In this document: positions 163-64,000 of the stretch, one piece after another
How the letters are laid out: the number at the start of each line of letters is the position of its first letter
How positions within the stretch are numbered: the stretch's first letter is position 1
NCBI GenBank assembly: GCA_964537895.1
Contig: CAZIDK010000001.1
Span: forward strand, 134,198-198,197
From: an uncultured Gammaproteobacteria bacterium
GTDB lineage: Bacteria; Patescibacteriota; Microgenomatia; Levybacterales; UBA12049
Length of the DNA: 64,000 bases
Reading direction: 5' to 3'
The notes under the pieces: generated by a model
The model's database searches: none
Told to the model about the DNA's origin: nothing
What the model saw: only the letters and a program-made list of their open reading frames with translations
Program-made: the position numbers and the translations under genes

Positions 163-1836
<1,674 letters not shown>

Positions 1837-2222: not shown

Positions 2223-2345
2223 ATAGTCAAAAAATATCACTCGCTTAAAGTGACTGCTTATTTATACAACAAAAATACACTGCTGTCAATACTTAACTAC
2301 TTGACACTTTACCTTTTGTTATATACCATAAATTTAGATTATATT

Positions 2346-3476
2346 ATGTCCTTACCATCGGGCAAAAAATTGCTGTTACTTGGTTTTATAGCGGTTCTAC
2401 TCGTAGTTATCCCTTTAACTGTGTATCTTGTGCAGCAACAGCAAAAAACAAAAAGCGGAGCCGCTCCCGCAACCACTCTCGGTTTTAATCCCGCAAGTAA
2501 AACAATCGGTGTTAATGACACCGTAAATTTAGACGTGATGATGAATCCGGCAACCAATCAGGTTTCTTTTGTAAAATTAATTATTAACTATGACGCAACA
2601 AAACTTGCGACTGCCGCAGCCGGCGCTACTGTTTGTCCCACAAGACCCAATGACGCTCTTTGTCCAAACATTGCTGCGTTTCCATCTGTTTTACAGGGGC
2701 CAATCTATGGTCCGGGAACAATTTCGGTTACTCTTTCTATTGGCGGGAGCCCTCAAAACATAGTACAGACAGCGACAAGAATTGCCAGTCTTTCTTTCCA
2801 GGCTATCGCTTCCACGGATCCCGGAACAACACAAATAACTATCGACCAGCCCCAATCCCAAGTTCTTTCCATAGCCTCTACCGACCAGTTTAATGAAAAT
2901 GTTTTGTCTACTGTTAGTCCTGCAACAATCACCATAACGGCTGCCGTATCTTCCCCGACTCCCACGCCAACTCCCACGCCAGAGCCAACTGCCTCTCCCA
3001 CGCCAGAGCCAACTGCCTCTCCCACGCCAAACGCTCAAGCGCCGGTTTGCGAAAGCCTAACTTTAAGCGGAGCGGCAACCGGAACAGCGCCGTATTCGCT
3101 TACTTTCACTGCAACAGGCACTTCTTCGGCAAGCACAATCAGCAAGGTTACGTTTAACTTTGGTGACAGCGCGGTTTTGGATGAACCCCAGTCGGGAGGT
3201 CCAAGTTCCGTTAGTGTCCAGTCCTCGCATACTTATAATAGTGCCGGAACATTTGTTGCGTCTGCTTCCTTAACCGATGTTCTTGGAAACGTAAGCGATA
3301 CTGCAAACTGTACACAAACAATAACGGTAACTGCGGCACCAACTTCAACAGCTATAGCCCAGGCAACGCCAGCACCTCCTCTTCCGGTAGTCGGTCCTGA
3401 TGCCAAAATATTGGCAATAGGAGCAATAGGAACAATACTTTCTGTACTTGGAATACTACTTTTCTTTGCCCTTTAA
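2346..3476 (+). CDS. secreted or anchored surface protein: signal/TM, cohesin-like domain, PKD-like domain, Pro/Thr linker, C-terminal GPDxKI + hydrophobic tail
   Basis: The likely start is the internal Met (MSLPSGKKLLLLGFIAVLLVVIPLTVYL, hydrophobic). VNDTVNLDVMMNP...VSFVKLIINYDATKL resembles a cohesin fold. VTFNFGDS...HTYNSAGTFVASASLTD resembles a PKD domain. The linker is PTPTPTPEPTASPTPEPTASPTP. The C-terminus is VGPDAKILAIGAIGTILSVLGILLFFAL followed by a stop. Confidence 0.6.
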   Translation: MSLPSGKKLLLLGFIAVLLVVIPLTVYLVQQQQKTKSGAAPATTLGFNPASKTIGVNDTVNLDVMMNPATNQVSFVKLIINYDATKLATAAAGATVCPTRPNDALCPNIAAFPSVLQGPIYGPGTISVTLSIGGSPQNIVQTATRIASLSFQAIASTDPGTTQITIDQPQSQVLSIASTDQFNENVLSTVSPATITITAAVSSPTPTPTPTPEPTASPTPEPTASPTPNAQAPVCESLTLSGAATGTAPYSLTFTATGTSSASTISKVTFNFGDSAVLDEPQSGGPSSVSVQSSHTYNSAGTFVASASLTDVLGNVSDTANCTQTITVTAAPTSTAIAQATPAPPLPVVGPDAKILAIGAIGTILSVLGILLFFAL

Positions 3477-5227
3477 TTTTCTTTTGTAATTAGAGGAAGC
3501 AATGCTTCTTGAGGAATATCTATTTTTGAAGTTCCAAATAATTTATTTTTTCCTTTTTTCTGAGCTTCCAAAAGTTTATTTTTTCTTGTTACATCGCCCC
3601 CGGACATTTTTGCCAAAACATCCTTTCTGAATGGGGGGATTTCCGATCTGGCAAGAATTTTTCCGCCTACTTTTGCCTGAATAATCTGTTTTATTTGTTT
3701 CCTCGGAATTAAATCTTTAAGTTTTTCTGTTTTTTGTCTTGCCAGAAATTGAGCTTCATTACTGTAAACCAATTCCGAGAGCACGTCTATTTCCGTATCG
3801 TTTATTACAATTTCTAGATTGACCAAATCCGCTTCTTTATAATCAGTAAGTTCATAATCTATACTGGCAAAACCAGAAGAAACAGTTTTTATCTCGGGGG
3901 AAAGGTTCCTGATAAAGCAGCTGAATGGTATTTCATACTTTAATATCGCATTGTCTTTGTGATACGAAATATCAATAAGACTGCCTTTTTTACTTTGAGC
4001 AACAGACATTACTCCGCCGACAAATTTGGTTGGAGTAAAAATAATTAAATTCATATATGGTTCCAGCATTGCTCCATCTTCTCTTTTTTCATATAAAACG
4101 TGGGGCATAGTTAAAATCGGATCAATCTTTTCTTCTTGTTTTAATCTTTCTTTAAAAATCTCCGCGTGTAAAAGTCCTAAAAAACCTACTCTAAAACCAC
4201 TTCCCAAAAATACCGAATACTCTGAAGATATACTTAGCGATGCGTCATTTAACGAAAGTTTGCTTATTGCTTCTTTAAGGCGGACTAATTCGTTTGTACT
4301 TTTTGGATAAACGCCAAAAAATACCATTGGTTTTGGAGTCTCGTATCCGGGCAAGGGCTGAATGTCTGATTTTTGATTTTTGCTTTTTGCTTTTTGATTT
4401 GTCAACGTATCTCCAACCCTTGATTGTCTTATATCTTTTATTCCCGTAACTATATATCCGATTTCGCCGGTTGTTAAATCTTCTTTTGGAGACAGAAACG
4501 GAGAAAAAAATCCGACTTCGGACGCATCTACTCTCACTTTATTTTGCAAGAATTCTATTCTGTCTCTTTTTCTAATTTTTCCGTCAACAACTTTTATAAA
4601 AACCACGACTCCCCTATGCTCATCATATTCGGCATCAAAAACTAACGCTCTTAGGGGTGAATCCATCGAGCCTTTTGGTGAAGGAAGTTTTTCCACTAAC
4701 CCCTTAAGCAAACTTTCTACATTTTCTCCTGTTTTTGCGGAAATATAATATATTTCTTCTTTCTTAAACCCAAACATTTCTTCCAATTCCTTAGTAGTCT
4801 GTTCAGCCATTGCCGTGTCCAAGTCTATTTTGTTAATAACCGGAATTATTGTTAAATTTTCTTTTTGGGCAGCCCTAAAATGAGCCACTGTTTGCGCCTG
4901 AATTCCTTGAGTTGCGTCAACTAAAAGTATTGCCCCTTCACAGGCGGCTAAAGTTCTTGAAACTTCGTAGGAAAAATCAATATGGCCCGGGGTATCAATG
5001 AGATTTAGCGTATAGTTAATAGCGTTTAACGTATAGTGCATTCCAACAGGCGCAAGTTTTATAGTAATTCCGCGCTCTCTGCTGATAGGGCTTTGGTCCA
5101 AAAATTGTTCTTGAATTTTGTCTTTAGAAATAGTTTTTGTTAACTCTAAAAACCTATCGGCAAGAGTTGATTTACCGTGATCTATATGCGCGATAATTGC
5201 AAAATTACGAATAGTTGTTTGTTTCAT
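3473..5227 (-). CDS. lepA: translation elongation factor 4 (LepA)
   Basis: 584 aa. The G-domain NFAIIAHIDHGKSTLADR, DTPGHIDF and NKID motifs are present, as is the LepA-specific C-terminal domain. There is a short Lys/Gln-rich insertion (KAKSKNQKSDIQ). Confidence 0.93.
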   Translation of the reverse strand: MKQTTIRNFAIIAHIDHGKSTLADRFLELTKTISKDKIQEQFLDQSPISRERGITIKLAPVGMHYTLNAINYTLNLIDTPGHIDFSYEVSRTLAACEGAILLVDATQGIQAQTVAHFRAAQKENLTIIPVINKIDLDTAMAEQTTKELEEMFGFKKEEIYYISAKTGENVESLLKGLVEKLPSPKGSMDSPLRALVFDAEYDEHRGVVVFIKVVDGKIRKRDRIEFLQNKVRVDASEVGFFSPFLSPKEDLTTGEIGYIVTGIKDIRQSRVGDTLTNQKAKSKNQKSDIQPLPGYETPKPMVFFGVYPKSTNELVRLKEAISKLSLNDASLSISSEYSVFLGSGFRVGFLGLLHAEIFKERLKQEEKIDPILTMPHVLYEKREDGAMLEPYMNLIIFTPTKFVGGVMSVAQSKKGSLIDISYHKDNAILKYEIPFSCFIRNLSPEIKTVSSGFASIDYELTDYKEADLVNLEIVINDTEIDVLSELVYSNEAQFLARQKTEKLKDLIPRKQIKQIIQAKVGGKILARSEIPPFRKDVLAKMSGGDVTRKNKLLEAQKKGKNKLFGTSKIDIPQEALLPLITKEN

Positions 5228-8505: not shown

Positions 8506-8841
8506 ATGAAACAAAGAGACATTATTACATTACTGATACCATCATTCATCTTAATAGTAGCGTGGATTATTTTCAGTATTTATCATAGCTCTGTAACCTC
8601 GACTATACCGCCCGCTACAAACATCCAGATATCCCCGATAACGCCTGCCTTTGATATGGATGTGATATCTAAATTAAAACAAAGACAAAAAGTTACACCT
8701 CTTTATGAAGGGCAAGCTATTGCTTCCCCAACGCCAACGCCGGGGTTTCCAAATATTTTCTCGTCTTCTTTATCCGCTTCTCAAATAACCGGCTCTAGTA
8801 ATGCTCCTCAAGGCTCGCCGGGAGGAAGTCTGTTGCCATGA
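8506..8841 (+). CDS. small membrane protein with Pro-rich tail
   Basis: 111 aa with an N-terminal TM (IITLLIPSFILIVAWIIFSIY). It is translationally coupled to the next gene (ATGA overlap). Confidence 0.4.
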   Translation: MKQRDIITLLIPSFILIVAWIIFSIYHSSVTSTIPPATNIQISPITPAFDMDVISKLKQRQKVTPLYEGQAIASPTPTPGFPNIFSSSLSASQITGSSNAPQGSPGGSLLP

Positions 8842-10256
8842 AAAAAACAATTTGGGATAAACGTATACCAACACTTTTAGGAATGTTGCTTATAGTTGTT
8901 GGTATCGGTCTGACTTCTTTCTTAGTTGATAAGGGAGTAATTTTCATTGGACGCGCCAGTCCGGCAACAAATCCGCAAAACGTAAGAATAACCAACATTA
9001 CAGACAATTCATTTACTGTTTCTTATAATACGGATGCGCAAGTTATAGGCAGTTTAACTTATGGAAAAGATCAAAATTTAGGACAGACTGCCCTGGACGA
9101 CAGAGACCAGCAAACAGGCTCTTTGGCTAACCATAAGATTCACAGTATTACCGTAAGAAGCTTATCGCCTGTGACAAAATATTTTTTTTCGATTACCAGC
9201 GGGCAAGATAAATTTTCAAATAACGACACTCCATTCGAAGTGGTTACCGGAGCAAACGCAACTAGTCCTCCCTCGGAACAAAAACCGGTCGTTGGAAAAG
9301 TGGTTATGCCAAACGGCCAAGCCCCTGATGAGGCAATAATTTATATTACAACCGCCAACTCTCAAGTTATCTCTTCGCTTGTAAAATCCGGCGGAACCTA
9401 TTTGATTCCCCTGAATTCCGTGAGAAGTCAGGATTTGGCATCTTATTTGGATTTTTCAACCGTGAACACTCTTAAAATGCTTGTTTTTGGAGACGGATTG
9501 TCTTCAAACGTATCCTTATCTATAAACCAAATAAATCCTGTTCCAACCGTAACTCTTTCTCAAAATTATGATTTTGCAACAGGTACGGAACCTGTAGCAT
9601 CTTCATCGGCACAGCAAAATTCAGCCGAAAGTTTCCCGTCGCCAAAACCTAATGAAAATGTTTCAAGTAAGACCCCCCAGATACTAACTCCGCAGGCAAA
9701 TCAAAGTTTTTCCGATCAACAGCCTCTTTTTAAAGGCACTGGGAAGCCTAATGAAACTGTAAAAATAGAGATACACTCGGATGCGCAAATACAAACCGAG
9801 GTAAAAACCGATGCAAATGGAAATTGGAGCTACAGACCTAACGTCCCGCTTTCACCGGGACAGCATACGATTTCTATAACTACAAAAGATATAAACGGGA
9901 TATTAAGAACAATAACAGAAAATTTTACGGTTTATGCCGCAGGGAGTCAAGTTAACCCTGTTGCCAACCCTCCCACGGCCACCCCGACTCCCAGCCCGGC
10001 CCCATCCGCGACCCCTACACCAACTCCATCACCTACTCCTGCCGCAACGCCAACGTCTACTCCGGCGGCAACCGTTACGCCTACTCCAACTCCATCACCC
10101 ACTCCTACTCCAACCGTAGCGCCGACGGTAGCGCCCTCTAATCCCGGGCTTGCACCGGGAGGAAACTTACCGGGACCTGATGGGAAAATAATTACCTTAG
10201 GACTCCTCGGAGGAATACTTACCATTATCGGAGCCGTACTGCTATTTGCTTTATAA
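8838..10256 (+). CDS. surface protein: N-terminal TM/signal, fibronectin-III-like domain, beta-rich region, long Pro/Thr/Ala linker, C-terminal GPDxKI + hydrophobic tail
   Basis: The N-terminal TM is followed by NVRITNITDNSFTVSYNTD...HSITVRSLSPVTKYFFSI (FN3 / purple-acid-phosphatase-N-like). The 3' region encodes PTATPTPSPAPSATPTPTPSPTPAATPTSTPAATVTPTPTPSPTPTPTVAPTVAP. It ends PGPDGKIITLGLLGGILTIIGAVLLFAL followed by a stop. This tail is paralogous to the tail of the 2346..3476 protein. Confidence 0.6.
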   Translation: MKKTIWDKRIPTLLGMLLIVVGIGLTSFLVDKGVIFIGRASPATNPQNVRITNITDNSFTVSYNTDAQVIGSLTYGKDQNLGQTALDDRDQQTGSLANHKIHSITVRSLSPVTKYFFSITSGQDKFSNNDTPFEVVTGANATSPPSEQKPVVGKVVMPNGQAPDEAIIYITTANSQVISSLVKSGGTYLIPLNSVRSQDLASYLDFSTVNTLKMLVFGDGLSSNVSLSINQINPVPTVTLSQNYDFATGTEPVASSSAQQNSAESFPSPKPNENVSSKTPQILTPQANQSFSDQQPLFKGTGKPNETVKIEIHSDAQIQTEVKTDANGNWSYRPNVPLSPGQHTISITTKDINGILRTITENFTVYAAGSQVNPVANPPTATPTPSPAPSATPTPTPSPTPAATPTSTPAATVTPTPTPSPTPTPTVAPTVAPSNPGLAPGGNLPGPDGKIITLGLLGGILTIIGAVLLFAL

Positions 10257-15841: not shown

Positions 15842-17716
15842 GTGGTATCATTATACGGTATGAGGCAAGATTTTCTCAAGGACTTGAATAAGGAACAGCT
15901 CCAGGCAGTGCTTCAAAAAAATGGTCCGATGATAATATTAGCCGGAGCAGGTAGCGGCAAAACAAGGGTTTTAACCTATAAAGTTATCTATTTAATTTCA
16001 GAAGGGATAAGTCCTTTCAACATTCTCATGGTAACTTTTACTAATAAAGCCAGTAAAGAAATGAAAGAAAGAATGCAAAAGTTTTTTAAAAAAGGTGACA
16101 AACAGGTTTCCGAACTTCCGTCAATATCTACTTTTCATGCGCTTTGTGCAAAAATATTAAGAATTGAAGGTAAATACATTGGGATCCCAAATAATTTCTT
16201 AATATACGATAGTCAAGATCAAAAAGACACAATAAAAGAAGCCTTTAATCTTTTAGGGCTATCTCTAAAAGAGTACAAACCTTCATCTATTCTTGCAACC
16301 ATATCTCAAGCAAAAAACGAATTAATTGATGAAACACAATATCCGTCTTTTGCCAGAGGGCATTTTCAAGAAGTAGTTTCCAGAGTTTATGTAATTTATC
16401 AAAAAATCTTAAAGGAAAATGCTGCTTTGGATTTTGATGATTTAATTTTAAAAACAGTTGAGTTATTTAGAAAAAACCCGGATGTTTTGGAAAAATATCA
16501 AAATAAATTTAAGTATATTTTTGTAGATGAATATCAGGACACAAATCACGCACAATACCTGCTTACGAAACTGCTTAGCCGGAAATGGAACAATATTTGC
16601 GTCGTCGGCGATTTTTCTCAAAGCATATATAGTTTTAGAGGCGCAGATTTTTTAAACCTTGCAAAGTTTAAAGAGGATTTTAAAGATACAAAAACTTTTT
16701 CTCTTTCACAAAATTATAGATCAACTCAAAGAATTCTTGACGGGGCTTCTTCTGTTATATCTAAAAATAACGGTCATCCTGTTTTACAACTTTGGACCGA
16801 AAACAAAGCCGGAGAAGATATTTCAATTTTTGAAGCGTTAAATGAACAGCGTGAAGCGGAATTTACCTTAGAAGAAATGGAAAAAATTAAATATCAGAAT
16901 CCGAGTTTAAGATATTATGATTTCGCAATTCTTTACAGGACAAACGCGCAATCGAGGGCAATTGAGGAAGTTTTTATTCATAGCGGAATTCCATACATCC
17001 TAATCGGCGGAACAAGATTTTACGAAAGAAAAGAAGTCAAAGATGTGCTTTCTTATTTAAGAGTTATTGCAAATCCCAAAGACAAAATTTCTTTAAAAAG
17101 ATTAGAAAAATTAGGCAAAGGAAAATTTGTTAAATTCCTGGATTTTCAAAAAACTTTAGATGAAAAAAATATAAGTAGTGATACGACAATTTCTATTATG
17201 GATAGTGCTTTAAAAGCAACAGATTATCTTTCTTTATACAACGCAAAAGACGGGGAAGATTTGGGAAGACTTGAAAATATCAAGGAGCTTCGTTCTGTTG
17301 CAATCTCCTATCCTAATCTTGGAGAGTTTTTAGAAAATGTATCTTTGGTTGAACAAGAATATATACCCGATCACATAAAAGACGAAAACGGCAAGAAAGA
17401 TGCAATAAATTTAATGACTTTGCATGCGGCTAAAGGTTTGGAGTTTCCTGTTGTTTTTATGGTAGGAATGGAAGAGGGACTTTTTCCGCATAGCAGGAGC
17501 ATGATGGATAAAAATGAACTTGAAGAAGAAAGAAGACTCTGTTATGTTGGGATGACAAGAGCTAAAGAAAAACTCTTTTTAACCTATTCAAGAAAAAGGC
17601 TTTTCTTCGGACAAAAAACGACAAATATTGTGTCTAGATTTATACTGGAACTTCCGGAAGGAGTGTTGGAGAAAAGCTTAAATCGGATACGGATTGACGT
17701 TCCTGAATATTTATGA
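15842..17716 (+). CDS. UvrD/PcrA-family ATP-dependent DNA helicase
   Basis: GAGSGKTRVLT Walker A, FVDEYQDTN Walker B, helicase motifs through the Q-rich and VGMTRAK motif VI regions. The likely start is Met-7 (15860). Confidence 0.9.
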   Translation: MVSLYGMRQDFLKDLNKEQLQAVLQKNGPMIILAGAGSGKTRVLTYKVIYLISEGISPFNILMVTFTNKASKEMKERMQKFFKKGDKQVSELPSISTFHALCAKILRIEGKYIGIPNNFLIYDSQDQKDTIKEAFNLLGLSLKEYKPSSILATISQAKNELIDETQYPSFARGHFQEVVSRVYVIYQKILKENAALDFDDLILKTVELFRKNPDVLEKYQNKFKYIFVDEYQDTNHAQYLLTKLLSRKWNNICVVGDFSQSIYSFRGADFLNLAKFKEDFKDTKTFSLSQNYRSTQRILDGASSVISKNNGHPVLQLWTENKAGEDISIFEALNEQREAEFTLEEMEKIKYQNPSLRYYDFAILYRTNAQSRAIEEVFIHSGIPYILIGGTRFYERKEVKDVLSYLRVIANPKDKISLKRLEKLGKGKFVKFLDFQKTLDEKNISSDTTISIMDSALKATDYLSLYNAKDGEDLGRLENIKELRSVAISYPNLGEFLENVSLVEQEYIPDHIKDENGKKDAINLMTLHAAKGLEFPVVFMVGMEEGLFPHSRSMMDKNELEEERRLCYVGMTRAKEKLFLTYSRKRLFFGQKTTNIVSRFILELPEGVLEKSLNRIRIDVPEYL

Positions 17717-18720
17717 TAAATAAAAAATTACATCCCTTGCAATCCCCAGAGTGGGGGGAATTCAGAAAAAAAACAGGCGTTAAAGTTGTTAGGATTAATA
17801 ATTTACAACTCACAATTCATTCTCTTCCCCATACAAAATATACAATCGGATATTTTCCTAAAGGACCGGATATTGATAAAAAAATGCTTGATAAGCTTTT
17901 GGAGATCGGCAAAAAAGAGAACTGCATTTTTATTCAGCTAGAACCAAACGTTGAAAAGATAGATAATAAAAAATATAAGTTAAAAAATCTTTTTCCCTCC
18001 TTACGCCCTCTTTTTACCAAATATACCTTTATTTTAGATTTAACAAAATCGGAAGATAAACTTTTAAAGAACATGAATTCTAAAACAAGATATAACACCA
18101 AATTAGCAGAAAAAAAAGGCGTAAAAGTAATTGAAGATAATTCAGATAAAGCTTTCGAAGAGTATTTACGCCTTACCAAAGAAACAACACAAAGACAAAG
18201 ATTCTATGCCCACAGCGAAAGATATCACAGGCTAATGTGGGAAACGTTAAGTAATCAAAAATCATCCATTCGGGACATTCGGCTGAGCTCAGTCGAAGCC
18301 CAAGCTCAGGACAAAAATCAAAAATCGGATGATACCGAGCTATCTGCGCATTTATTGAAAGCTGAATATGAAGGAGAAATTTTAGCAGCGTGGATTTTAT
18401 TTGTTTTGGGGGATACGCTTTATTATCCTTATGGAGCTTCAAGTACTAAATACAAAGAAGTAATGGCTTCAAATCTTATGATGTGGGAAACAATAAAATT
18501 TGGTAAGAAATTGGGACTTAAAAATTTTGATATGTGGGGCGCGCTTGGGGTAAATCCTAACAGCAAAGACCCTTGGTACGGATTTCATAAGTTTAAAGAG
18601 GGGTATGGAGCAAAACACGTAGAATTTGTAGGCAGTTACGATTATGTTTTGAAGAAGAAATTATATGTTATTTATAATATCTTAAATAATATCCGCTGGC
18701 TTATTCTAAAACTTAAATAA
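17713..18720 (+). CDS. FemAB-family peptidoglycan interpeptide aminoacyl-transferase, carrying a 25-aa in-frame repeat-encoded insertion
   Basis: About 335 aa. It has the FemAB-like N-terminus (SPEWGEFRKKTG) and the conserved C-terminal ...DTLYYPYGASS...GFHKFKEGYG. It overlaps uvrD by ATGA. Residues NQKSSIRDIRLSSVEAQAQDKNQKS are encoded by the 74-nt repeat. Confidence 0.55.
   Translation: MINKKLHPLQSPEWGEFRKKTGVKVVRINNLQLTIHSLPHTKYTIGYFPKGPDIDKKMLDKLLEIGKKENCIFIQLEPNVEKIDNKKYKLKNLFPSLRPLFTKYTFILDLTKSEDKLLKNMNSKTRYNTKLAEKKGVKVIEDNSDKAFEEYLRLTKETTQRQRFYAHSERYHRLMWETLSNQKSSIRDIRLSSVEAQAQDKNQKSDDTELSAHLLKAEYEGEILAAWILFVLGDTLYYPYGASSTKYKEVMASNLMMWETIKFGKKLGLKNFDMWGALGVNPNSKDPWYGFHKFKEGYGAKHVEFVGSYDYVLKKKLYVIYNILNNIRWLILKLK
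18253..18326 (+). repeat. 74-nt insertion-like repeat, copy A (in-frame within the FemAB-family gene)
   Basis: AATCAAAAATCATCCATTCGGGACATTCGGCTGAGCTCAGTCGAAGCCCAAGCTCAGGACAAAAATCAAAAATC. It is identical to the reverse complement of 43946..44019. It has the internal 10-bp palindrome CTGAGCTCAG and 11-nt direct terminal repeats AATCAAAAATC. Confidence 0.85.
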
Positions 18721-19517: not shown

Positions 19518-20053
19518 TATTTATGAAGTACAATTTCTCCGCCTGTTGGATAAACCGTTTTAACTCTTACCGGCTCTACCCCTTTTGTTTTGTAGAAAAT
19601 CTCTGCTATTTGCAGTACTTCTTCCAATAATTCTTTTGCCGCAGCCATATCAATATTTTGTCTGGCTTTTGCCCCAAGTTTGTTTGCATTTGAGAAATGT
19701 TCTCCTAACTTAGGATGCTCTTTATAGTGTTCTTCTCTGAAATAGTCATTCTCAAGAGTAGTTAGTTCTTCTTCCAAAAGACTTGAATGATCTTCTTTAA
19801 CATATGTAATTCTTGCAATATCATGCTCCGGTTTTGTTTCAGCTTGTCCTGAGTTTGCTTGTGGTGAGCTTGCCGAATCCGTCGAAGGATTATCCCTTTT
19901 AACCTCTGTTAAGAGTTGGGTCATGCGAATAATTGTATGCGCTGCAACTTGTGCGTTATGGGGATCATATATTCCGCAGGGAATATCACAATGAGCATAG
20001 GCTATTTTTCCTATTAACAACTTTTCCAAAAGAAAACGGAGAACTGTTTTCAT
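19517..20053 (-). CDS. sodN: nickel-containing superoxide dismutase precursor
   Basis: A pro-peptide is followed by the Ni-hook HCDIPCGIYDP (HCDxPCGxYDP). Cleavage before His would expose His1. It carries an internal acidic/Ser-rich insertion compared with about 130-aa NiSODs. Confidence 0.8.
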   Translation of the reverse strand: MKTVLRFLLEKLLIGKIAYAHCDIPCGIYDPHNAQVAAHTIIRMTQLLTEVKRDNPSTDSASSPQANSGQAETKPEHDIARITYVKEDHSSLLEEELTTLENDYFREEHYKEHPKLGEHFSNANKLGAKARQNIDMAAAKELLEEVLQIAEIFYKTKGVEPVRVKTVYPTGGEIVLHK

Positions 20054-26254: not shown

Positions 26255-26510
26255 TCCGCGGTAGCTCAACGGTAGAGCAGGAAACTGTAAAATAATGCAG
26301 CCCTCAATGGAAATGTTGAGGAGAAAAACTGGGCTAATTCGGGGAAACCCCTAGGGGCAATCCCGAGCTAAATCTCGCAAGAGTAAATGTGTAGAGACTA
26401 TATACCCAGGACCTAACTCGCAAGATATGGTCAAGAGATAGTCCACGCTTCGATGAAAGTCGGGGATAAGTGTAATTTCAAGGTTCTAGGTTCGAATCCT
26501 AGCCGCGGAG
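26255..26510 (+). tRNA. tRNA gene interrupted in the anticodon loop by a probable group I intron of about 184 nt; anticodon UGU (Thr) or GUA (Tyr) depending on intron boundary
   Basis: A 7-bp acceptor stem pairs tccgcgg (26255-61) with ccgcgga (26503-09). There is a D arm gctc/gagc. The T arm is ctagg-TTCGAAT-cctag (26486-26502). Between the 5' anticodon-stem half (ggaaa|ct, ends in U at 26286) and the 3' exon lies about 184 nt ending in G (26470). The insert carries group-I-like elements (...gactata..., aagatatggtc...gatagtcc). There is no encoded CCA. Confidence 0.6.
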
Positions 26511-26514
26511 CAGA

Positions 26515-27597
26515 TTAGCCGAGGTAGTCTTTAAGTTTATTGCCGCGGGATGGATGCCTTAATTTCCTCAAGGATTTTGCTTCGATTTGTCTTATTCTTT
26601 CTCTTGTTACCGCAAACATTTTTCCAACCTCTTCCAGCGTTTTTGGCCGTCCGTCTTTTAAGCCAAATCTTTCTTCCAAAACTCTTTTTTCTCTGTCAGA
26701 AAGAGTTGATAAGACCTGTTCTACCTGCTCTTTTAAAAGTTCCCTACTTGCCGTGTCAAAAAGAGTCGGAGCCGCAGTATCGTGAATAAAATCACCTAAG
26801 CGCGAATCTTCTTCGTCTCCAACAGGCGATTCTAAACTTGCCGGCTCCTGGGAAATTTTAATTATCTCCAACGCTTTTTCAGGGTCAATATCCAAAGCTT
26901 TGGCAACTTCTTCAGGCGTTGGCTCTCTTCCTAACTCCTGCATCAATTTTCTTGATGCTCTTAGAAATCTATTGATATTTTCAACCATATGAACAGGAAT
27001 CCTGATGGTCCTTGCCTGGTCAGCAATGGCGCGTGTTATGGATTGCCTAATCCACCAAGTCGCATAAGTTGAAAACTTATAACCCCTTCTCCAATCGTAT
27101 TTTTCAACTGCTCTTATTAAACCCTGATTTCCCTCCTGGATTAAATCTAAAAGCGTTAACCCACGACCGACATATTTTTTAGCAATAGACACAACTAATC
27201 TTAAATTTGAATTTACAAGAATTTTCTTTGCTTCGTGGTCTGCTTTTTCAACTCTTTTTGCCAAAGAGATTTCTTGGTCAAAGGTTAAAAGAGGAATTCT
27301 GCCGATTTCTTTAAGATACATTCTTACCGGGTCGGAGACTGTGCCTTCAGTTAAAACAGTTAATGCTTCCAGTTCTTTTTCCAAATCTTCTATCGGCTTC
27401 TCATTGCTCTGATCGGCTGCAACGGACTCAAAAACATCAATATCCGAATGCATTAATTTATCGTAAAGCTGATCAAGCTCAACAATGTGCTCTTCCGGAT
27501 GGGGAAAAATAGATAAAATTTCGTCTTGGGTGATATACCCGCGTTTTTTAGCAGACATAACGATATCTAATAAAATATTTGGCTGTTTTTGTTTCAT
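26515..27597 (-). CDS. rpoD: RNA polymerase primary sigma factor (sigma-70, RpoD)
   Basis: Region 2.x is [29 protein letters not shown]. The region 4 HTH is ...[30 protein letters not shown]. It lies downstream of dnaG. Confidence 0.93.
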
Positions 27598-40574: not shown

Positions 40575-40640
40575 TTAGCTACTAGCCATTAGCCTCTAGC
40601 ATCTAGCCATTAGTTAACTAGTTGCTAGTTGCTCGTTGCT
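40575..40640. repeat. CTAG-rich intergenic repeat with ttgctag/ttgctcg heptad tandem (ruvB-ruvA spacer)
   Basis: gctaCTAGccattagcctCTAGcatCTAGccattagttaaCTAGttgCTAGttgctcgttgCTAGttgctcg. It shares the 25-nt core tagccattagttaactagttgctag with 41232..41290. Confidence 0.7.
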
Positions 40641-41226
40641 AGTTGCTCGTTGCTCGTCCTAACGCTTTCAGTGCCAGTTTTATTTTTTCATCCAATGTTA
40701 GTCCTTGGGTTTTTATTTCCCTAACAGTTTTTTGCGCTTCCCCTACCGAAAATCCGAAATTTTTAAGCGCCTGGACAACTTCGGCATTTTCCAGCAAGTC
40801 CTTGCCTGATAAATCCAAATCTGTGCCCGCTCCCATTTTATTTTTAAGCTCAATTATAATTTTCTGGGCATTTTTTGTGCCTAAGCGCGGAACAGAAGTA
40901 AAAAACGATACGTCTCCTTTAATTATTGCCTCGATTATGTCTTTTCTCTCTCCAAACGAGAAAATATTTAAAGCGGTTTTAGGCCCAATCCCCGAAACCG
41001 TGATTAGTCCTTCAAAAAGTTTTAAGTCTTCAATTTCCAAAAAACCAAAAAGAGCAAGTTCGTCCTCGCGAACATAGGTATAGGTAAAAAGTTTAATTTT
41101 GTCTGCTTTTGAGAGTTTTGAATAAACACTGTCGGAAACTAAAACTTTGTAGCCGACTCCGTTAACATCAACATAAATAAAGGGTCTGTCCAGAAGTTCA
41201 ATGCTGCCTTTGAGGAATCCTATCAT
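40639..41226 (-). CDS. ruvA: Holliday junction DNA helicase RuvA
   Basis: MIGFLKGSIELLDRPFIYVDVNGVGYKV is the OB fold. Tandem HhH motifs (GIGPKTA) and the C-terminal domain III are present. Confidence 0.92.
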   Translation of the reverse strand: MIGFLKGSIELLDRPFIYVDVNGVGYKVLVSDSVYSKLSKADKIKLFTYTYVREDELALFGFLEIEDLKLFEGLITVSGIGPKTALNIFSFGERKDIIEAIIKGDVSFFTSVPRLGTKNAQKIIIELKNKMGAGTDLDLSGKDLLENAEVVQALKNFGFSVGEAQKTVREIKTQGLTLDEKIKLALKALGRATSN

Positions 41227-41231: not shown

Positions 41232-41290
41232 TAGTAATTAGCCCTTAGCCTCTAGCCATTAGTTAACTAGTTGCTAGCGGCTAGTTGCTA
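41232..41290. repeat. CTAG-rich intergenic repeat, second copy upstream of ruvA
   Basis: taattagcccttagcctCTAGccattagttaaCTAGttgCTAGcggCTAGttgCTAGttaCTAGc. It is followed at 41330..41370 by a tandem heptamer (atttaag)x5. Confidence 0.7.
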
Positions 41291-41585
41291 GTTACTAGCA
41301 TTAAAAGGATTATAACACAAGCTATAGTAGGACTTTAGATTTAAGATTTAAGATTTAAGATTTAAGAATAAAGAGCGGTCTCTTTTAGTTTGCAATCCAA
41401 CAAAGAACGTTAAGTTTTTGCGATTGAGCGAATCAGGGGAATTCCTCAGATCGCGAAGCGAGATTGAGGAAGGGGTGAAATTACCCGATGAGCGAAAGAG
41501 TAAAAATAGTTCGGCTTGGCTTGCAAAAAGTTTTTGGGCGTCTTTTCCGAAAAAGACGCAAAGAGCGATTGCTTTCACAAAAAAT

Positions 41586-43144: not shown

Positions 43145-43603
43145 CTACTTATTGCCTAATTCTTTCTGCAGTTTTAACGCTTCCTCGTAGTTTGGGTCAA
43201 TAAATAAAGTTTTTTGCAAATATTGGTTTGCAGATTTAAAATTCCCCAACTGAAACTCTCTAGCCGCTATTTGAAAATAAACTTCTTTGTAGTTTTTGTA
43301 TTTATCGGAAAATGATTTCCAAATGTTTATTTCGTGGATTAATTTCTGCCGTTGAACTTGAATTTGTTGATTTTTGCTGTAATTTCTATATAGATCAACT
43401 GCGGTAAATAATATTAATGCCACAACTGCCGTAAAAATAAAAACAATTGTCATTTTTTTCAGAATTTGTAAAATACGGACGAATTCAGGACTTTCGGTAA
43501 TTCTTCGGTAAATCCTCGGGGATTGTAGCTTCCTAACCGCTGATTTAAACCTTGCCTGTTTCCTAATTTGTTTTGAGGATTTTTTTATATTCTTGAACTT
43601 CAT
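43145..43603 (-). CDS. membrane-anchored TPR-like protein
   Basis: 152 aa. A basic N-terminus is followed by a TM helix (IVFIFTAVVALILFTAV) and then a TPR-like helical repeat (AAREFQLGNFKSANQYLQKTLFIDPNYEEA). Confidence 0.45.
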   Translation of the reverse strand: MKFKNIKKSSKQIRKQARFKSAVRKLQSPRIYRRITESPEFVRILQILKKMTIVFIFTAVVALILFTAVDLYRNYSKNQQIQVQRQKLIHEINIWKSFSDKYKNYKEVYFQIAAREFQLGNFKSANQYLQKTLFIDPNYEEALKLQKELGNK

Positions 43604-45762
43604 GCGCTTTTAGCCGGCCATTTTGAAACTATAAGGCTCTCCCCTTTCCCAAACAGAACTTGGTTTATCTCCTCCGTAACAAAAGGCATGAAGGGATGCA
43701 GTAGCCTTAGGAGAATTAAGAATAAAGAATTAAGAATTAAGAATGAATTCTCGTCGATCCTATTCTTAACATCCTCAATATACACGTCTGCGAATTCATG
43801 CCAGGCAAAATTATAAAGGTTTTGCGCCGCATGATTAAAATCATATTTCTCCAAAAGCCTGGTAACTTCCGCTGTTAATTTTTCGACTTTTTGAAGCATT
43901 TCCGCATCCTTCTCATTTTTAACAATTTTTTCCAGTTCTTTCAAGGATTTTTGATTTTTGTCCTGAGCTTGGGCTTCGACTGAGCTCAGCCGAATGTCCC
44001 GAATGGATGATTTTTGATTTCGATTCATATCAATGAATCGTGCCATATTCCAAAGCTTATTGGTAAAATTGCGCATTGCTTGTAATTTTGAAAAGGACAA
44101 TGCTTGATCATTTCCCAAGGCTGTTCCGTAAACCAAAGCAAAACGCACCGCGTCTGCGCCATATGTATCAAGAAGTTCCAAGGGATTTATTGCATTACCC
44201 TTGCTTTTACTCATTTTCTTGCCCAAAGGGTCGTTTACCAGGCCGTGCAGGACAATAGTCTCAAAAGGCACTTTTTTTGTCTCGTAAATCCCGAGCATTA
44301 CCATCCTGGCTGCCCAAAACCTTAAAATGTCATAACCGGTTTCCATAACAGTGGTTGGATAAAATGTATCATAATCCCCTTCTTTTGCTGTTTGCAAAGT
44401 TGCGAAGGGCCATTGACCAGAGGAAAACCAAGTATCAAAAGCGTCCTCATCTTGCTTCATTTTTCCCGAACATTTCCCGCATTTTTCCCGAACATCCCCA
44501 TCTGTTACTTCCCACTCTCCGCACTTTTCGCACTTAAAAGCGGGTATTCTAATTCCCCACACGATTTGCCTTGAGATATTCCAATCTCTTATATTTTCTA
44601 AAAATTGAAAATAAAGTTTTTCCATATTTTTAGGATAAACTTTAATCTTGCCTGATTTTACAATTTCTATTGCCGGCTTTGCCAAAGGCTCCATTTTTAT
44701 AAACCACTGCTCCAGTGGCAAAGGCTCAATTGGATTTTTACATTTATAGCAAAGTCCGATTCTATGGGTATACTTATCATCTATTTTTTCTATTAACCCT
44801 TTTTTTTGCATCTCCTCAACAACCGCTTTTCTTGCCTGCTTTACGTAAAGTCCGGAAAATTTACCTGCTTTTTCATTCATTTTCCCATCCAGTCCAATTA
44901 CCTGAACCATTGGCAAATTATGTCTTTTTGCTACTTCAAAATCGTCAAAATCATGGGCCGGAGTTATTTTTACAACGCCTGTGCCGAATTCCTGATCAAC
45001 CATTTTATCTGCCACGACTTTAATTTTTGCTTTACCCAAAACCGTTTCTATGTCCAATTCTTTTCCAATGTATTTTTGGTAACGTTTGTCATCGGGGTGA
45101 ACAGCAACCGCAGTGTCTCCGAATTTTGTTTCCGGCCTTGTTGTTGCCAAAACCAAAGATCCATATTTTATGTAATAAAGGGGGTTTTGACGTTCTTCGT
45201 AAATTACTTCCAAGTCCGAAAAACTGGTCCCGTCAAAAGTACAGTAATTAACAAGTCTTTCCGCCCTGTAAATTAATCCGTCATCATGTAATTTTTTAAA
45301 AGTTTTATAAACTATTTTTACTATGTCTTTATCAAGCGTGAATTTTCTCCTGCTCCAATCAAGTGAAAAACCAAGACGTCTTAGCTGGTTTTCCATAACA
45401 GGCCTATTGCTTTGCACAAAATCCCAAATCATTTTATACAAAGTTTCCCGGGAATAATCAAAGCGTGACTTCCCTTCGGCTTGTAATTTTTTCTCAAACA
45501 CAAATTGCGTTTCAAAGCCCGCATGATCTGCTCCGGGAAGCCAGAGGGCTTTAAATCCCTGCATTCTTTTAAAACGAATGAGAATGTCTTCCAAAACATA
45601 CATTGCGTGGCCAAAGTGAAGCGGCGCGTTTGCGTTCGGAGGAGGTAAAATTATCGAGTAAGATTTGCCTTTAGGATTTACTTCGGGACTAAAATATCCT
45701 TTTTCTTCCCATTCTTTGTATATTTTTTCTTCAACATTTTTGTGACTATATACCTTATCCAT
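43600..45762 (-). CDS. valS: valine--tRNA ligase (compact form lacking the long C-terminal coiled coil), carrying a 25-aa in-frame repeat-encoded insertion
   Basis: The HIGH motif is PPPNANAPLHFGHA. KMSKSKGN is present. DTWFSSGQWPFATL and the anticodon-binding LLRLLHPFMPFVTEEI are present. Residues NQKSSIRDIRLSSVEAQAQDKNQKS are encoded by the repeat at 43946..44019. Confidence 0.85.
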   Translation of the reverse strand: MDKVYSHKNVEEKIYKEWEEKGYFSPEVNPKGKSYSIILPPPNANAPLHFGHAMYVLEDILIRFKRMQGFKALWLPGADHAGFETQFVFEKKLQAEGKSRFDYSRETLYKMIWDFVQSNRPVMENQLRRLGFSLDWSRRKFTLDKDIVKIVYKTFKKLHDDGLIYRAERLVNYCTFDGTSFSDLEVIYEERQNPLYYIKYGSLVLATTRPETKFGDTAVAVHPDDKRYQKYIGKELDIETVLGKAKIKVVADKMVDQEFGTGVVKITPAHDFDDFEVAKRHNLPMVQVIGLDGKMNEKAGKFSGLYVKQARKAVVEEMQKKGLIEKIDDKYTHRIGLCYKCKNPIEPLPLEQWFIKMEPLAKPAIEIVKSGKIKVYPKNMEKLYFQFLENIRDWNISRQIVWGIRIPAFKCEKCGEWEVTDGDVREKCGKCSGKMKQDEDAFDTWFSSGQWPFATLQTAKEGDYDTFYPTTVMETGYDILRFWAARMVMLGIYETKKVPFETIVLHGLVNDPLGKKMSKSKGNAINPLELLDTYGADAVRFALVYGTALGNDQALSFSKLQAMRNFTNKLWNMARFIDMNRNQKSSIRDIRLSSVEAQAQDKNQKSLKELEKIVKNEKDAEMLQKVEKLTAEVTRLLEKYDFNHAAQNLYNFAWHEFADVYIEDVKNRIDENSFLILNSLFLILLRLLHPFMPFVTEEINQVLFGKGESLIVSKWPAKSA
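43946..44019 (-). repeat. 74-nt insertion-like repeat, copy B (in-frame within valS)
   Basis: Its reverse complement is identical over 74 nt to 18253..18326. It has the same orientation and reading frame relative to its host gene as copy A. Confidence 0.85.
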
Positions 45763-55547: not shown

Positions 55548-55673
55548 GTTTTTGAAATTTTACACTTTTTCTAAACACTGTTATACACATTTTATAAACA
55601 TGTTTCTTGGCCGTGCCGCCTTGCTTTTTTCCACTTTTCCAGATACACTACTACTACAACAAGTATCTATATT

Positions 55674-58385: not shown

Positions 58386-58439
58386 GACTTAATAATAGCA
58401 GAAACTAATTGCTGGCAACTAAATACCAGCAACTAGTAA

Positions 58440-61051: not shown

Positions 61052-61168
61052 AAATAATTATTAATTTTCAATTTCTAATTTCTATTGGATTTTCAAGCTT
61101 CCAATCTTTGATTGCATCATTTTCATATCAAAAATAAAATTTTAAATATAAAATACACATAGCAAAAA

Positions 61169-61540: not shown

Positions 61541-61584
61541 ATTTGATATGTATTTTTAATATTTTATATTTAATCTTTTAAATG

Positions 61585-62805: not shown

Positions 62806-62838
62806 AGTTCAGTTACTAGACACTAGTTAGATTAGTTA

Positions 62839-63700: not shown

Positions 63701-63747
63701 ATAAAGCTAGCGTAGCAAATAGGAAAAGAAAAAGTCAAGGATAAGGG

Positions 63748-63999: not shown

Positions 64000-64000
64000 C

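Follow-up and report, generated by a model that had tools for sequence, protein, structure and literature searches.

A 74-nt segment shared by two unrelated genes

In the window (that is, the whole stretch of DNA analysed here, 64,000 nt in length), a FemAB-family gene and the gene for valyl-tRNA synthetase contain one and the same 74-nt segment. The following features are concerned:

17713..18720, plus strand: FemAB-family peptidoglycan bridge transferase gene, femAB (335 aa; Pfam PF02388/PF13480, FemAB/Acetyltransf_6; PDB match FemX, 6SNR)
18253..18326, plus strand: composite 74-nt copy in femAB (residues 181-205, NQKSSIRDIRLSSVEAQAQDKNQKS; absent from every other aligned FemAB orthologue)
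43600..45762, minus strand: valyl-tRNA synthetase gene, valS (720 aa; Pfam tRNA-synt_1 and Anticodon_1; best PDB match 1GAX, a ValRS, E=2.5e-168)
43946..44019, minus strand: composite 74-nt copy in valS (residues 582-606; identical in the sister-strain assembly L129)

A comparison of the window with itself found 18253-18326 (+) identical to the reverse complement of 43946-44019 at 74 of 74 nt, while 100 dinucleotide shuffles gave no match of this kind. Both copies have the same orientation and frame relative to their host gene, contain no stop and encode NQKSSIRDIRLSSVEAQAQDKNQKS; the exact match and the two ORFs thus bear out the shared 25-residue peptide that the earlier note had claimed. 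The same is true of its internal palindrome, CTGAGCTCAG, which lies at element positions 31-40. The 11-mer AATCAAAAATC is found at both ends of the element (positions 1-11 and 64-74). Trypsin would be expected to release the peptide LSSVEAQAQDK from either protein.

According to orthologue alignments, the segment is ancestral to neither the FemAB nor the ValRS family, as it is missing from all aligned proteins save the window's own FemAB protein (P0121) and the sister ValRS. Among the 55 closest of the 120 FemAB orthologues listed, only P0121 carries it; among the aligned ValRS orthologues, only the 95%-identical sister protein does. The sister strain has an identical valS copy and no insert in femAB. 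It is, in consequence, next to inconceivable that the segment is an ancestral protein part or an intein or intron that is removed later, a reading for which the open reading frame is the single argument: nearly all relatives lack the segment, 25 residues are far too few for an intein, and neither intein signatures, a splicing domain nor a catalytic RNA fold were found. Besides, the frame stays open in all intragenic copies examined of the module described below, as expected if that module is translated. Rfam detects nothing at the element. It does detect a genuine group I intron in the window, at 26279-26465, away from the element.

In structural terms, the valS insert corresponds to an unaligned linker between residues 594 and 610 of 1GAX, and residues 183-206 of the FemAB protein have an AlphaFold pLDDT below 50. 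The proposed check of surface-loop placement on ValRS and FemX structures hence gave a positive answer, with both inserts in loop or linker positions; both occupy indel-tolerant, disordered linkers of ValRS and FemAB.

It is very improbable that the femAB copy is an assembly or binning artefact, i.e., a chimera formed with valS reads. A FemAB protein containing the insert is known from one NCBI contig only (P0121), and a 74-nt repeat is able to confuse short-k assemblers. Nevertheless, (i) femAB sequence bounds the insert on both sides, in frame; (ii) the junction homology between the uninserted femAB and valS is 11 nt, below any assembler k; (iii) an ENA assembly obtained independently (L129) has the valS copy as well; and (iv) similar in-frame hairpins are present in many independent MAGs. 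The earlier judgement that a co-assembly artefact was unlikely holds on the strength of the resumed femAB sequence and the independent valS copy. The organism is also represented in the read set SRR13723394.

As regards copy number, there are two full copies in the 64-kb window, none in about 20 kb of additional sequence of the source genome, and none in the searched JGI metagenomes, where a scan with a 42-mer returned six matches, all of another flank type. With no further copy of the 74-mer type in those metagenomes, the element does not qualify as a proliferating MITE family at this length. The doubled insert peptide had no match in a set of 5.8 billion proteins, nothing that could count as a real match emerged from plasmid or phage collections, and no description of the element was found in the literature.

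Layers of the segment and the state of its sites in orthologues

The 74-mer consists of three layers: (i) an A-rich heptanucleotide linker, (AAAAATC)n; (ii) a 21-nt outer hairpin of the type TTCGG-CAAG-CTCAG; and (iii) a 27-nt inner hairpin, GACATTCGGCTGAGCTCAGTCGAAGCC, hereafter the core. Their positions are:

18253..18263, plus strand: left heptamer flank AATCAAAAATC in femAB (already present in femAB orthologues as AAT/ACT CAA AAA TC)
18265..18273, plus strand: left arm of the outer hairpin, TCCATTCGG, in femAB (found in valS orthologues without the core)
18274..18300, plus strand: 27-nt core in femAB (from the fold)
18301..18311, plus strand: loop and right arm of the outer hairpin, CAAGCTCAGGA, in femAB (from the valS orthologue comparison and intergenic copies in Levybacteria)
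18313..18326, plus strand: right heptamer flank, (AAAAATC)x2, in femAB (from the array and the orthologue comparison)
43961..43971, minus strand: loop and right arm of the outer hairpin, CAAGCTCAGGA, in valS (from the valS orthologue comparison)
43972..43998, minus strand: 27-nt core in valS (exactly this stretch is absent from the orthologues L130 (P0008) and L131 (P0002) in a codon-level comparison)
43999..44007, minus strand: left arm of the outer hairpin, TCCATTCGG, in valS (from the valS orthologue comparison)

The core folds into an 8-bp stem (TTCGGCTG/CAGTCGAA, with one G.T pair) closed by the loop AGCT. Its layout can be written as GAC(A/G)-TTCGGCTG-AGCT-CAGTCGAA-GCC, i.e., a tag, a stem of 8 bp that begins with two T.A pairs, a loop of 4 nt and a tail of 3 nt. 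As a single strand, the core is predicted to form a hairpin with tandem G.A pairs, the loop junction being CTGAG^C.

The valS orthologues L130 and L131 read TCC ATT C[C/G]G^CAA GCT CAG GA between heptamer flanks, and lack the 27 nt alone (at the position marked ^). In valS, therefore, 47 of the 74 nt are kept by orthologues without the core, and the 74-mer as a single inserted unit, as first proposed, did not stand. Since these orthologues have the flanks and the outer hairpin, the unit did not reach valS in one piece with a new duplication; this filled/empty pair shows no target duplication.

In femAB, the uninserted site of orthologues holds either AATCAAAAATC alone or a heptamer array: it reads AAA ACT CAA AAA TCA GAT in P0129 and AATC(AAAAATC)4 in P0133. 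From these states, the femAB of the window corresponds to that of P0129 with 63 nt added, and the 11-mer delimits these 63 nt. A second filled/empty pair is provided by P0138, which has 24 additional nt, TTTACACTGAGTCACATCGAAGTG, at the position CTTCGGCAAG^CTCAGGG of P0123, again with no duplication. The 27-nt (valS) and 24-nt (femAB) differences could each reflect an insertion or a precise deletion. Modules of 24-27 nt are gained or lost exactly at the loop of an older module and, inside genes, their length is always divisible by three. Recombination between lineages affects the linker region, and identity to the sister strain around the femAB insert falls to 0.76 in one 150-nt window; given this divergence of the allele, "recent" can only be a relative term for the origin of the insert.

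The heptamer layer also exists on its own. At the same loop positions, femAB of P0133 and valS of P0014 have a heptamer array and no hairpin, and across femAB, valS and lepA orthologues the arrays vary by 21 nt (three units, equal to seven codons). The lepA array and two further relatives in the window are:

4367..4400, minus strand: lepA heptamer array, AATC(AAAAAGC)2(AAAAATC)2 (codes for NQKAKSKNQKS; no hairpin; 21 nt longer than the orthologue in L121, a Levybacteria genome)
195..215, minus strand: ATCCTTCGGCAAGCTCAGGAT, a hairpin with one layer that belongs to this motif class (read in frame within the C-terminal tail of GroEL, NPSASSGSG)
19835..19895, minus strand: NPSTDSASSPQANSGQ, nested hairpins of this motif class in a decayed state (read in frame within a Ni-superoxide dismutase gene)

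The window contains several single-layer relatives. The lepA stretch does share CAAAAATCAAAAATC with the 74-mer, as had been observed, but its reading as a truncated third copy was rejected, lepA having an array that lacks the hairpin and exceeds its Levybacteria orthologue by 21 nt. In the same way, the 11-nt terminal repeats of the 74-mer are real, while their interpretation as a target-site duplication was abandoned because AATCAAAAATC belongs to the (AAAAATC)n array. A 7-bp target duplication as the general origin of heptamer arrays was likewise discarded, as the 27-nt and 24-nt filled/empty pairs show none.

These junctions bear directly on the possibility of a true miniature transposon of the MITE or RPE kind, in which a 63-nt unit mobilised in trans would prefer and duplicate AATCAAAAATC. 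The 63 nt of femAB do lie between perfect 11-nt direct repeats where uninserted orthologues hold one 11-mer, and in other genomes direct repeats of 7 nt or more flank the core about 4-5 times as often as they occur in controls (11.4% vs 2-2.7%; for instance, CCGACGA stands on both sides of the core in L004 and L071). We nevertheless consider this explanation unlikely, for several reasons: the flanks and outer hairpin are found in valS orthologues that lack the core alone; neither filled/empty pair has a duplication; terminal inverted repeats are absent beyond the hairpin itself; the unit was not found again in the window, in the ~20 kb of additional source-genome sequence or in the metagenome scan; and the 11-mer is part of an array that exists without the hairpin.

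Distribution and conservation of the core

The core is by far more widespread than the composite. A search with a 20-nt piece of the inner hairpin yielded at least 120 stretches, belonging to MAGs that represent about 12 phyla, as against approximately one expected by chance, and the inner 27-nt module is identical across these ~12 phyla. Among the matches listed, each MAG has 1-4 copies. The seven bases directly 5' of the 20-mer (n=119 copies) are most often GGACATT (44), GGACGTT (14) and TTGACTT (11), and strict motif classes cover 32 of the 119 copies.

Both genic and intergenic locations occur. Twenty-six of 122 core copies lie deep within long open frames. Thirteen of them run in the direction of the host gene and 13 against it, so that there is no mRNA-sense preference. 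In other Patescibacteria, the core is in frame in seven Pfam-verified hosts, i.e., FemAB, CCA-adding enzyme, CysRS, AspRS, RecJ, UvrB and TrmD; in this group, housekeeping genes often read through it in frame, whichever way it is oriented. Intergenic copies in the Levybacteria L125 and L126 consist of the same 45-nt nested unit and lie inside operons, between ftsE and ftsX and between secY and adk. The suggestion that every copy of the core marks the tip of a longer palindrome is only weakly borne out, with 8.5 flank-flank pairs vs 6.8 after shuffling.

Such invariance raises the question of a function at the nucleic-acid level. The core, with 20-27 nt unchanged over about 12 phyla, is kept better than neutral selfish DNA usually is, and this could reflect a constrained function. 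The corresponding alternative is an RNA or ssDNA binding or processing site (for example, a stabiliser or attenuator of operon mRNAs) that is tolerated in genes or tunes their translation. Several observations are consistent with it: (i) the core is invariant while its flanks vary; (ii) one variant, in L062, has a compensatory change from C-G to T-A; (iii) the G.T pair exists on one strand only; (iv) intergenic copies lie between co-transcribed genes; (v) the RNA fold has a free energy of -15.8 kcal/mol (z = -2.8); and (vi) the core forms part of a three-helix element of 84 nt that is kept across phyla, with covariation in a second helix. On the other hand, the orientation relative to the host gene is balanced (13:13), Rfam returned no family for the element or its 84-nt relative at gathering or permissive (E<=10) thresholds, presence varies among very close orthologues with no apparent consequence, and the intragenic positions tolerate any indel. 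On balance, a functional motif appears a somewhat remote explanation. Hammerhead, twister and other ribozymes, tRNA-like structures, attC sites and K-turns were dropped by eye because their required core motifs are absent. Beside the 84-nt family, where conservation spans about 100 nt, no larger conserved element or transposase was found.

Comparison with known repeats and proposed origin

Among known systems, the 74-mer is best placed as a nested palindrome family of the REP/RPE type. Classical Rickettsia palindromic elements (RPEs) are Rickettsia-confined palindromic repeats of ~100-150 bp (Ogata et al., via PMC10969869 and PMC3733652); they lie in frame in unrelated housekeeping genes (including aminoacyl-tRNA synthetases and repair genes), where they add a short peptide at places that the fold can accommodate, as well as in intergenic regions. 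In-frame insertion into unrelated genes with no disruption of the fold is found here too; size and host (PMC10969869), together with the apparent lack of sequence relation to an RPE family, set the present case apart. Here, the modules measure 21-27 nt (49 nt when nested, 74 nt with flanks), they are stacked, and the core is present in ~12 phyla; the hosts are CPR bacteria with a free-living or episymbiotic life as well as further environmental bacteria, and the source of the window is itself a Levybacteria-like CPR bacterium. The resemblance to RPEs that had been pointed out thus extends to a palindromic family in frame in housekeeping genes, and not to the 74-mer as a unit.

REPs of the GTAG- and CGTC-tagged superfamilies, intragenic REPs and RPE-4/RPE-6 included, have been described by Di Nocera et al. 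(2013; PMC3733652); REPIN/RAYT systems are close to them. REPs measure 20-40 nt and consist of an unpaired tag, a stem of 8 bp that opens with two A.T pairs, a loop of 4 nt and a tail of 3 nt; certain copies are located within ORFs (uvrB, aaRS and others), certain copies within larger palindromes, and copies between genes occur inside operons (PMC3733652). The core agrees with REPs in its intragenic location, in its nesting within palindromes and in its stem-loop, which falls within the range given for tagged REPs (8-9 bp stem with A.T as first two pairs, 4-5 nt loop, short tail, 20-40 nt in all); its 5' tag, however, is GAC(A/G) instead of GTAG or CGTC (or the variants TGTC/CCTC), and its tail is GCC instead of CCA. 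YGTC is present only 3' of the core hairpin, on the complementary strand. The CGTC-1 tag of the Neisseria dRS3 sequence lies 5' of the stem. Besides, GTAG REPs have a RAYT partner (an IS200/IS605-type Y1 transposase), reach hundreds of copies and often form head-to-head dimers. Here, no dimers were found among the core copies seen, copies per genome are apparently few and no RAYT was seen. No transposase or other partner came to light: when all ORFs of the window and of 138 loci (~1 Mb) were compared with approximate IS200/IS605 TnpA queries, none resembled TnpA. Finally, REP families are mostly species- or genus-specific, while the present sequence is identical across phyla.

Other systems are more distant. 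MITEs (Coxiella QMITE1, ERIC, BOX; PMC5896051, PMC10969869) are likewise small non-autonomous repeats that can be read through in host proteins, but they have IS-derived terminal inverted repeats and target-site duplications, in contrast to the duplication-free filled/empty pairs and the pre-existing array behind the 11-nt repeat reported here. With coding microsatellites, the element shares the (AAAAATC)n nature of its AATCAAAAATC flanks and the 21-nt shifts of its arrays. Classical contingency-locus repeats turn genes on and off by frameshifts; here, by contrast, only in-frame lengths are observed, the genes are essential, and the arrays also host a hairpin.

The reading that we favour, with a probability of roughly 0.55, is that the 74-mer is a three-layer composite of tiny GC-rich imperfect palindromes (stem-CTGAG-loop-YCGAAG-stem), REP-like in nature and RPE-like when in genes, and that its femAB copy was copied from valS. 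The modules would be selfish or neutral passengers at the DNA level, and would last within coding sequence only at sites where a frame free of stops yields a harmless hydrophilic loop. The valS gene would be the older host of this allele, from which 63 nt may have been recently copied into the pre-existing AATCAAAAATC of the femAB linker. To judge by sequence, the femAB copy probably derives from valS via the 11-nt microhomology; the likely route would be microhomology-mediated template switching or ectopic gene conversion, and not a transposase with an 11-bp duplication. We infer template switching over the 11 nt from the junctions only. Between genomes and phyla, the core may travel by means of a candidate trans-acting enzyme, or through conversion between similar hairpins after DNA uptake.

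A more far-reaching and more tentative proposal, to which we give limited credence, is that GACATTCGGCTGAGCTCAGTCGAAGCC would be a mini-element that is active and spreads horizontally, and one of the smallest mobile DNAs known. It would insert precisely and without duplication into the loops of related hairpins and thence into coding sequence of essential genes, in CPR and about 12 other phyla, through a candidate trans-acting ssDNA enzyme or through "homing" conversion from hairpin to hairpin. In that case, protein loop insertions in uncultivated bacteria would have in it a general and hitherto overlooked source.

To our knowledge, selfish DNA within coding genes has so far been a curiosity of Rickettsia and a few Proteobacteria. 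If the favoured reading is true, such DNA also acts in the Candidate Phyla Radiation and in many uncultivated phyla, with one shared 27-nt module, and it would account for part of the lineage-specific loop insertions that hamper the alignment and annotation of CPR proteins. The core would then be a sequence tag for very recent cross-phylum DNA exchange in groundwater and sediment communities. The filled/empty pairs (27 nt in valS, 24 nt and 63 nt in femAB) would provide test material for the mechanism of REP-like mobility, which is still unsettled. The association of hairpins with heptanucleotide arrays, for its part, suggests that palindromes and slippage jointly remodel the linkers of essential proteins.

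Anatomy of the duplicated insert

The sequence AATCAAAAATCATCCATTCGGGACATTCGGCTGAGCTCAGTCGAAGCCCAAGCTCAGGACAAAAATCAAAAATC (74 nt; hereafter, the 74-mer) occurs twice in the window without a single mismatch, as the earlier note had reported, and no such match was found in 100 shuffles. Also in agreement with that note, both copies have one orientation and one frame relative to their host genes, femAB and valS, and encode NQKSSIRDIRLSSVEAQAQDKNQKS.

Copies of the 74-mer and their host genes (window positions)
18253-18326 (+): copy 1, inside ORF 17713-18720
17713-18720 (+): host ORF 1, 335 aa, Pfam FemAB and Acetyltransf_6
43946-44019 (-): copy 2, inside ORF 43600-45762
43600-45762 (-): host ORF 2, 720 aa, Pfam tRNA-synt_1 and Anticodon_1; closest solved structure, Thermus ValRS 1GAX (E = 2.5e-168)

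The window has a G+C content of about 36%, parts of it have some 72-74% DNA identity to a Candidatus Levybacteria contig, and its FemAB and ValRS proteins are both recorded from a single NCBI contig. Accordingly, the source organism is placed in the Patescibacteria (CPR) as a Levybacteria-like member.

The 74-mer had been regarded as a single unit with 11-nt terminal repeats. A codon-level comparison of valS orthologues is decisive on this point. In the sister strain (valS locus L129, 95% identical, ENA assembly), all 74 nt of the valS insert are identical. Two orthologues with about 85% identity to the window's valS (L130/P0008 and L131/P0002) read ...AAT CGA AGT CAA AAA TTA TCC ATT CCG ^ CAA GCT CAG GAG AAA AAT CAA AGA TCC TTG..., or equivalent, where the caret marks the junction: the outer arms TCCATTCGG / CAAGCTCAGGA are present in them together with the A-rich flanks, and exactly 27 nt, GACATTCGGCTGAGCTCAGTCGAAGCC (nine codons, DIRLSSVEA), are missing. 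Because of this comparison, three layers are distinguished instead of one unit: (i) a linker of heptamer repeats; (ii) an outer hairpin of 21 nt (reverse strand, TCCTGAGCTTGCCGAATGGA); and (iii) a 27-nt inner hairpin, the core, with an 8-bp stem (TTCGGCTG/CAGTCGAA) and the loop AGCT. The RNA fold of the entire 74-mer has -15.8 kcal/mol (z = -2.8).

At the insert site, other valS orthologues have nothing but peptides of the kind NQKSKIKNQKS, NQKSKGKSQN or IQNSEFRIQN, whose periodicity is read as that of heptanucleotide repeats, (AATCAAA)n or (ATTCAGA)n, with seven codons for every three units. The supposed terminal repeat or target duplication, AATCAAAAATC, turns out to be 1.5 units of the heptamer array (period 7 by TRF). 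Likewise, the stretch of lepA taken for a truncated third copy (4367-4400) is a hairpin-free array, AATC(AAAAAGC)2(AAAAATC)2, which codes for NQKAKSKNQKS, exceeds that of the Levybacteria orthologue in L121 by 7 aa (21 nt), and is kin to the flanks of the 74-mer, not to its palindrome.

Among the tandem repeats of the window, period 7 is more frequent than any other class (19 of 71 TRF rows; among others, 40575-40657, 41237-41298, 41337-41367, 58428-58451, 61535-61580 and 62811-62850). A second repeat-derived stretch in valS, (AGAATTA)x4.7 at 43712-43744 (-), codes for NSFLILNSLFLIL in the anticodon-binding domain. Several intergenic period-7 arrays consist of CTAG-containing heptamers (TAGCCAT, CTAGTTG, AGCAACT, AGTTACT), so that each of the six frames has a stop codon after three units. 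GC-rich 12/24-nt tandem repeats lie at 2953-3029 and 9970-10125, within the + strand ORFs 2250-3476 and 8838-10256.

Other features of the window (window positions)
15842-17716: UvrD-like helicase ORF with a match at 17497-17595 (+) to Rfam RF03531 (n00280, "C. difficile sRNA included into helicase gene"; 71 bits, gathering score 65), which is probably no sRNA but conserved coding sequence
26255-26515 (+): group I intron interrupting a tRNA gene (Rfam RF00028, 67 bits, at 26279-26465), with tRNA exon halves TCCGCGGTAGCTCAACGGTAGAGCA... and ...GGTTCGAATCCTAGCCGCGGA visible around the match; ARAGORN reported no tRNA in the entire window
about 55600-64000, and also L136 (more DNA of the same organism): type IV secretion/conjugation-like cluster (PrgI, TraC-like, VirB4/DUF87 and T4SS pilin-like genes) interspersed with several small 23S_rRNA_IVP four-helix-bundle genes, and adjoining dnaN-dnaA

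Position in the proteins and origin of the femAB copy

Both inserts occupy linker or loop positions, in line with the surface-loop placement that the earlier note put up for testing. In ValRS, the insert (residues 582-606) falls in the stretch 583-621, which connects the catalytic body to the bundle of anticodon-binding helices and is unaligned to 1GAX, where 15 residues (595-609) are present instead. The FemAB insert separates the two halves that align to S. aureus FemX 6SNR (query 182/192, chain 223/271), at the position of the coiled-coil arm of staphylococcal Fem proteins. In the AlphaFold model of FemAB (mean pLDDT 82, pTM 0.81), residues 183-206 have pLDDT <50 and no secondary structure, and are flanked by a helix (169-180) and a strand (211-219).

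As the earlier note had supposed, the insert is not ancestral: among the ValRS orthologues compared, only the 95%-identical sister has it and, among the 55 closest of 120 listed FemAB orthologues, only P0121 (the window's own protein, 100% identical) carries it. The sister strain, which shares the valS copy, has LKMANGNKL at this site of femAB (L132). The femAB linker varies among orthologues in the same manner as that of valS.

States of the femAB linker in orthologues
P0129: TTA AAA ACT CAA AAA TCA GAT (KTQKSD)
P0133: AATC(AAAAATC)4 AGAT (KNQKSKIKNQKSD)
P0123: single hairpin, CTT CGG CAA GCT CAG GGC (LRQAQG)

A second pair of filled and empty alleles is found in this linker: compared with P0123 (L135), P0138 (L138) has an additional 24 nt, TTTACACTGAGTCACATCGAAGTG (eight codons, CTGAG-N5-TCGAAG), at CTTCGGCAAG^CTCAGGG, with no duplication. 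The 24- and 27-nt modules are present or absent precisely at hairpin loops, in a modular, nested anatomy.

The window's femAB corresponds to the P0129 state plus 63 nt, bounded on each side by the pre-existing 11-mer AATCAAAAATC. In the simplest history, valS would be the donor and femAB the recipient, because the flanks and outer hairpin of valS are common to diverged orthologues and the femAB copy equals the window's valS allele at 74 of 74 positions. The composite would have been copied within this genome through heptamer-array homology or microhomology; the preferred route is template switching or ectopic conversion at microhomologies of 11 nt, which would leave junctions such as those in femAB. 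An 11-bp target duplication would produce identical junctions, but it is less favoured, since no further copies of the 74-nt type were found in the window, in about 20 kb more of the same organism (L136, L137) or in a JGI metagenome scan, and both clean filled/empty pairs of inner modules lack a duplication.

The window and the sister strain form a mosaic, with identities of 0.80-1.00 per 150 nt, and 0.76 beside the femAB insert. Identity to L129/L132 alternates between about 0.80 and 1.00 (150-nt windows) inside single genes (valS, femAB and the uvrD-like gene), a pattern which indicates frequent homologous recombination in this CPR population. Furthermore, the valS linker of P0008 departs from the tree of the remaining protein. 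Linkers are therefore exchanged by recombination and, in consequence, that the femAB gain is recent, and an insertion rather than a deletion, is what we infer.

The core in other genomes and genes

A 20-nt piece of the core, CGGCTGAGCTCAGTCGAAGC, for which about one chance match is expected in 596 Gb, matches species-representative genomes in at least 120 stretches, every one of them from a MAG. By their labels, the carriers belong to many Patescibacteria lineages, Deltaproteobacteria/Desulfobacterota, Nitrospirota, Chloroflexota/Anaerolineae, Planctomycetota, Ignavibacteria, Elusimicrobia/Endomicrobiales, Actinomycetota, Gammaproteobacteria/Pseudomonadota, Verrucomicrobiota, Methylomirabilales, Auribacterota and FCPU426. 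The core is identical across phyla, the conserved unit being GAC(A/G/-)TTCGGCTGAGCTCAGTCGAAGCC, and its flanks vary between genomes; in one variant (L062), a C-G pair of the stem is replaced by T-A, a compensatory change. The core also occurs on two viral contigs, the flanks of one of which (L128) match a Chthoniobacterales locus (L015). The element has no match in Rfam or in plasmid and phage collections, and full-text literature gave no match either for its sequence and peptides or for such a concept in CPR.

Among the matches listed, at least 32 of 119 copies sit inside a simple hairpin that belongs to the same motif class: (i) CCCTGAG^core^CTTGTCGAAGGG, in many Patescibacteria; (ii) its mirror form, CTTCGACAAG^core^CTCAGGG; or (iii) the window's type, ATTCGG^core^CAAGCTCAGG. 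The window's exact 45-nt nested unit is also present in other Levybacteria, with a third stem (ATGACCC/GGGTCAT), between co-transcribed genes (ftsE and ftsX; secY and adk). A general excess of complementarity between core flanks is weak. Direct repeats of at least 7 nt flank the core in 11.4% of the matches listed versus 2-2.7% in controls (about 4-5 times commoner), and may come from either slippage near the hairpin or duplication on insertion. Genome-specific short direct or tandem repeats flank the core in L001, L052, L093 and L113 (Deltaproteobacteria), L033 (Planctomycetota), L004/L071 and L100; examples are CACGANN arrays, TTGTTCA, and cores between two CCGACGA or between AAAGTGCAG and AAGGTGCAG.

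An 84-nt element, CTAAGTCCTTCGGTTCATAAGTTCGATTACGAACATATTTAGAC-core-CTCAGGACTTAG, is highly similar across MAGs labelled Ignavibacteria, Pseudomonadota, Thermodesulfobacteriota/Desulfobacteraceae and Nitrospirota (L005, L017, L022, L046, L049, L064, L070, L103, L116, L117). It comprises an outer stem, a covarying second helix (ATTCG/CGAAT, GTTCG/CGAAC, ATCC/GGAT) and the invariant core hairpin, frequently lies near contig ends, loses conservation at about 100 nt, and has no match in Rfam.

Among the matches listed, 26 of 122 copies have at least 60 codons of open frame on both sides, with 13 copies per orientation relative to that frame. Pfam-verified hosts, from Patescibacteria, are FemAB (L002, at a site other than the window's), the CCA-adding enzyme (L023), CysRS (L024), AspRS (L061), RecJ (L069), UvrB (L075) and TrmD (L092); by eye, a ValRS from Planctomycetota (L109) and a GyrB-like protein (L089) were identified as well. 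In genes, modules have lengths that are multiples of three, stop-free frames, no orientation preference and linker positions. The core has four stop-free frames out of six, which give ASTELSRMSSG, SAELSRSPQG, (D)IRLSSVEA or GLRLSSAE. Single-layer or decayed in-frame modules are present in the window in the GroEL tail (195-215) and the Ni-SOD gene (about 19835-19895), and possibly in the L25 gene.

Mode of existence and known systems

The modules are probably DNA-level REP-like palindromes, selfish or neutral, which would persist in coding DNA solely in tolerant loops. Tandem G.A mismatches in a pyrimidine-GA-purine context stabilise single-strand hairpins, and those in the module's TGAG/CGAA would do so here. 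Palindromes tend to stall replication, which promotes slippage as well as duplications and deletions between direct repeats that lie close by; the co-occurrence of hairpins and short tandem arrays would fit this tendency.

Rickettsia palindromic elements (RPEs) are about 150 bp long, and R. conorii has 44 of them inserted in frame in its genes (PMC10969869). The likeness to them put forward in the earlier note holds for behaviour (in-frame, non-ancestral, in loops); the note's reading of the unit, the target duplication and lepA is wrong. In size and layout, the element matches REPs, which, by the definition of Di Nocera et al. (2013; PMC3733652), combine a tag, a stem of 8-9 bp with A.T as its first pairs, a loop of 4-5 nt and a tail of 3 nt. 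REPs occur within uvrA/B, recB, dnaE and aaRS genes, some are nested in palindromic targets, and RPE-4 and RPE-6 are CGTC-type REPs (PMC3733652). Nevertheless, both REP superfamilies have a defining tag, 5'-GTAG or 5'-CGTC, where the element has 5'-GAC(A/G); in the loci seen, it lacks head-to-head dimers and RAYT, and its copy number seems low. Nor is it a MITE, since it has neither TIR nor TSD. It is therefore filed as REP/RPE-like in its mode of existence, outside any described family.

A gene-invading palindrome is an already known principle. What is new, as far as found, is (i) its occurrence in CPR genomes; (ii) an invariant 27-nt core common to a dozen phyla; and (iii) clean nested filled and empty alleles, which together make the mechanism directly testable.
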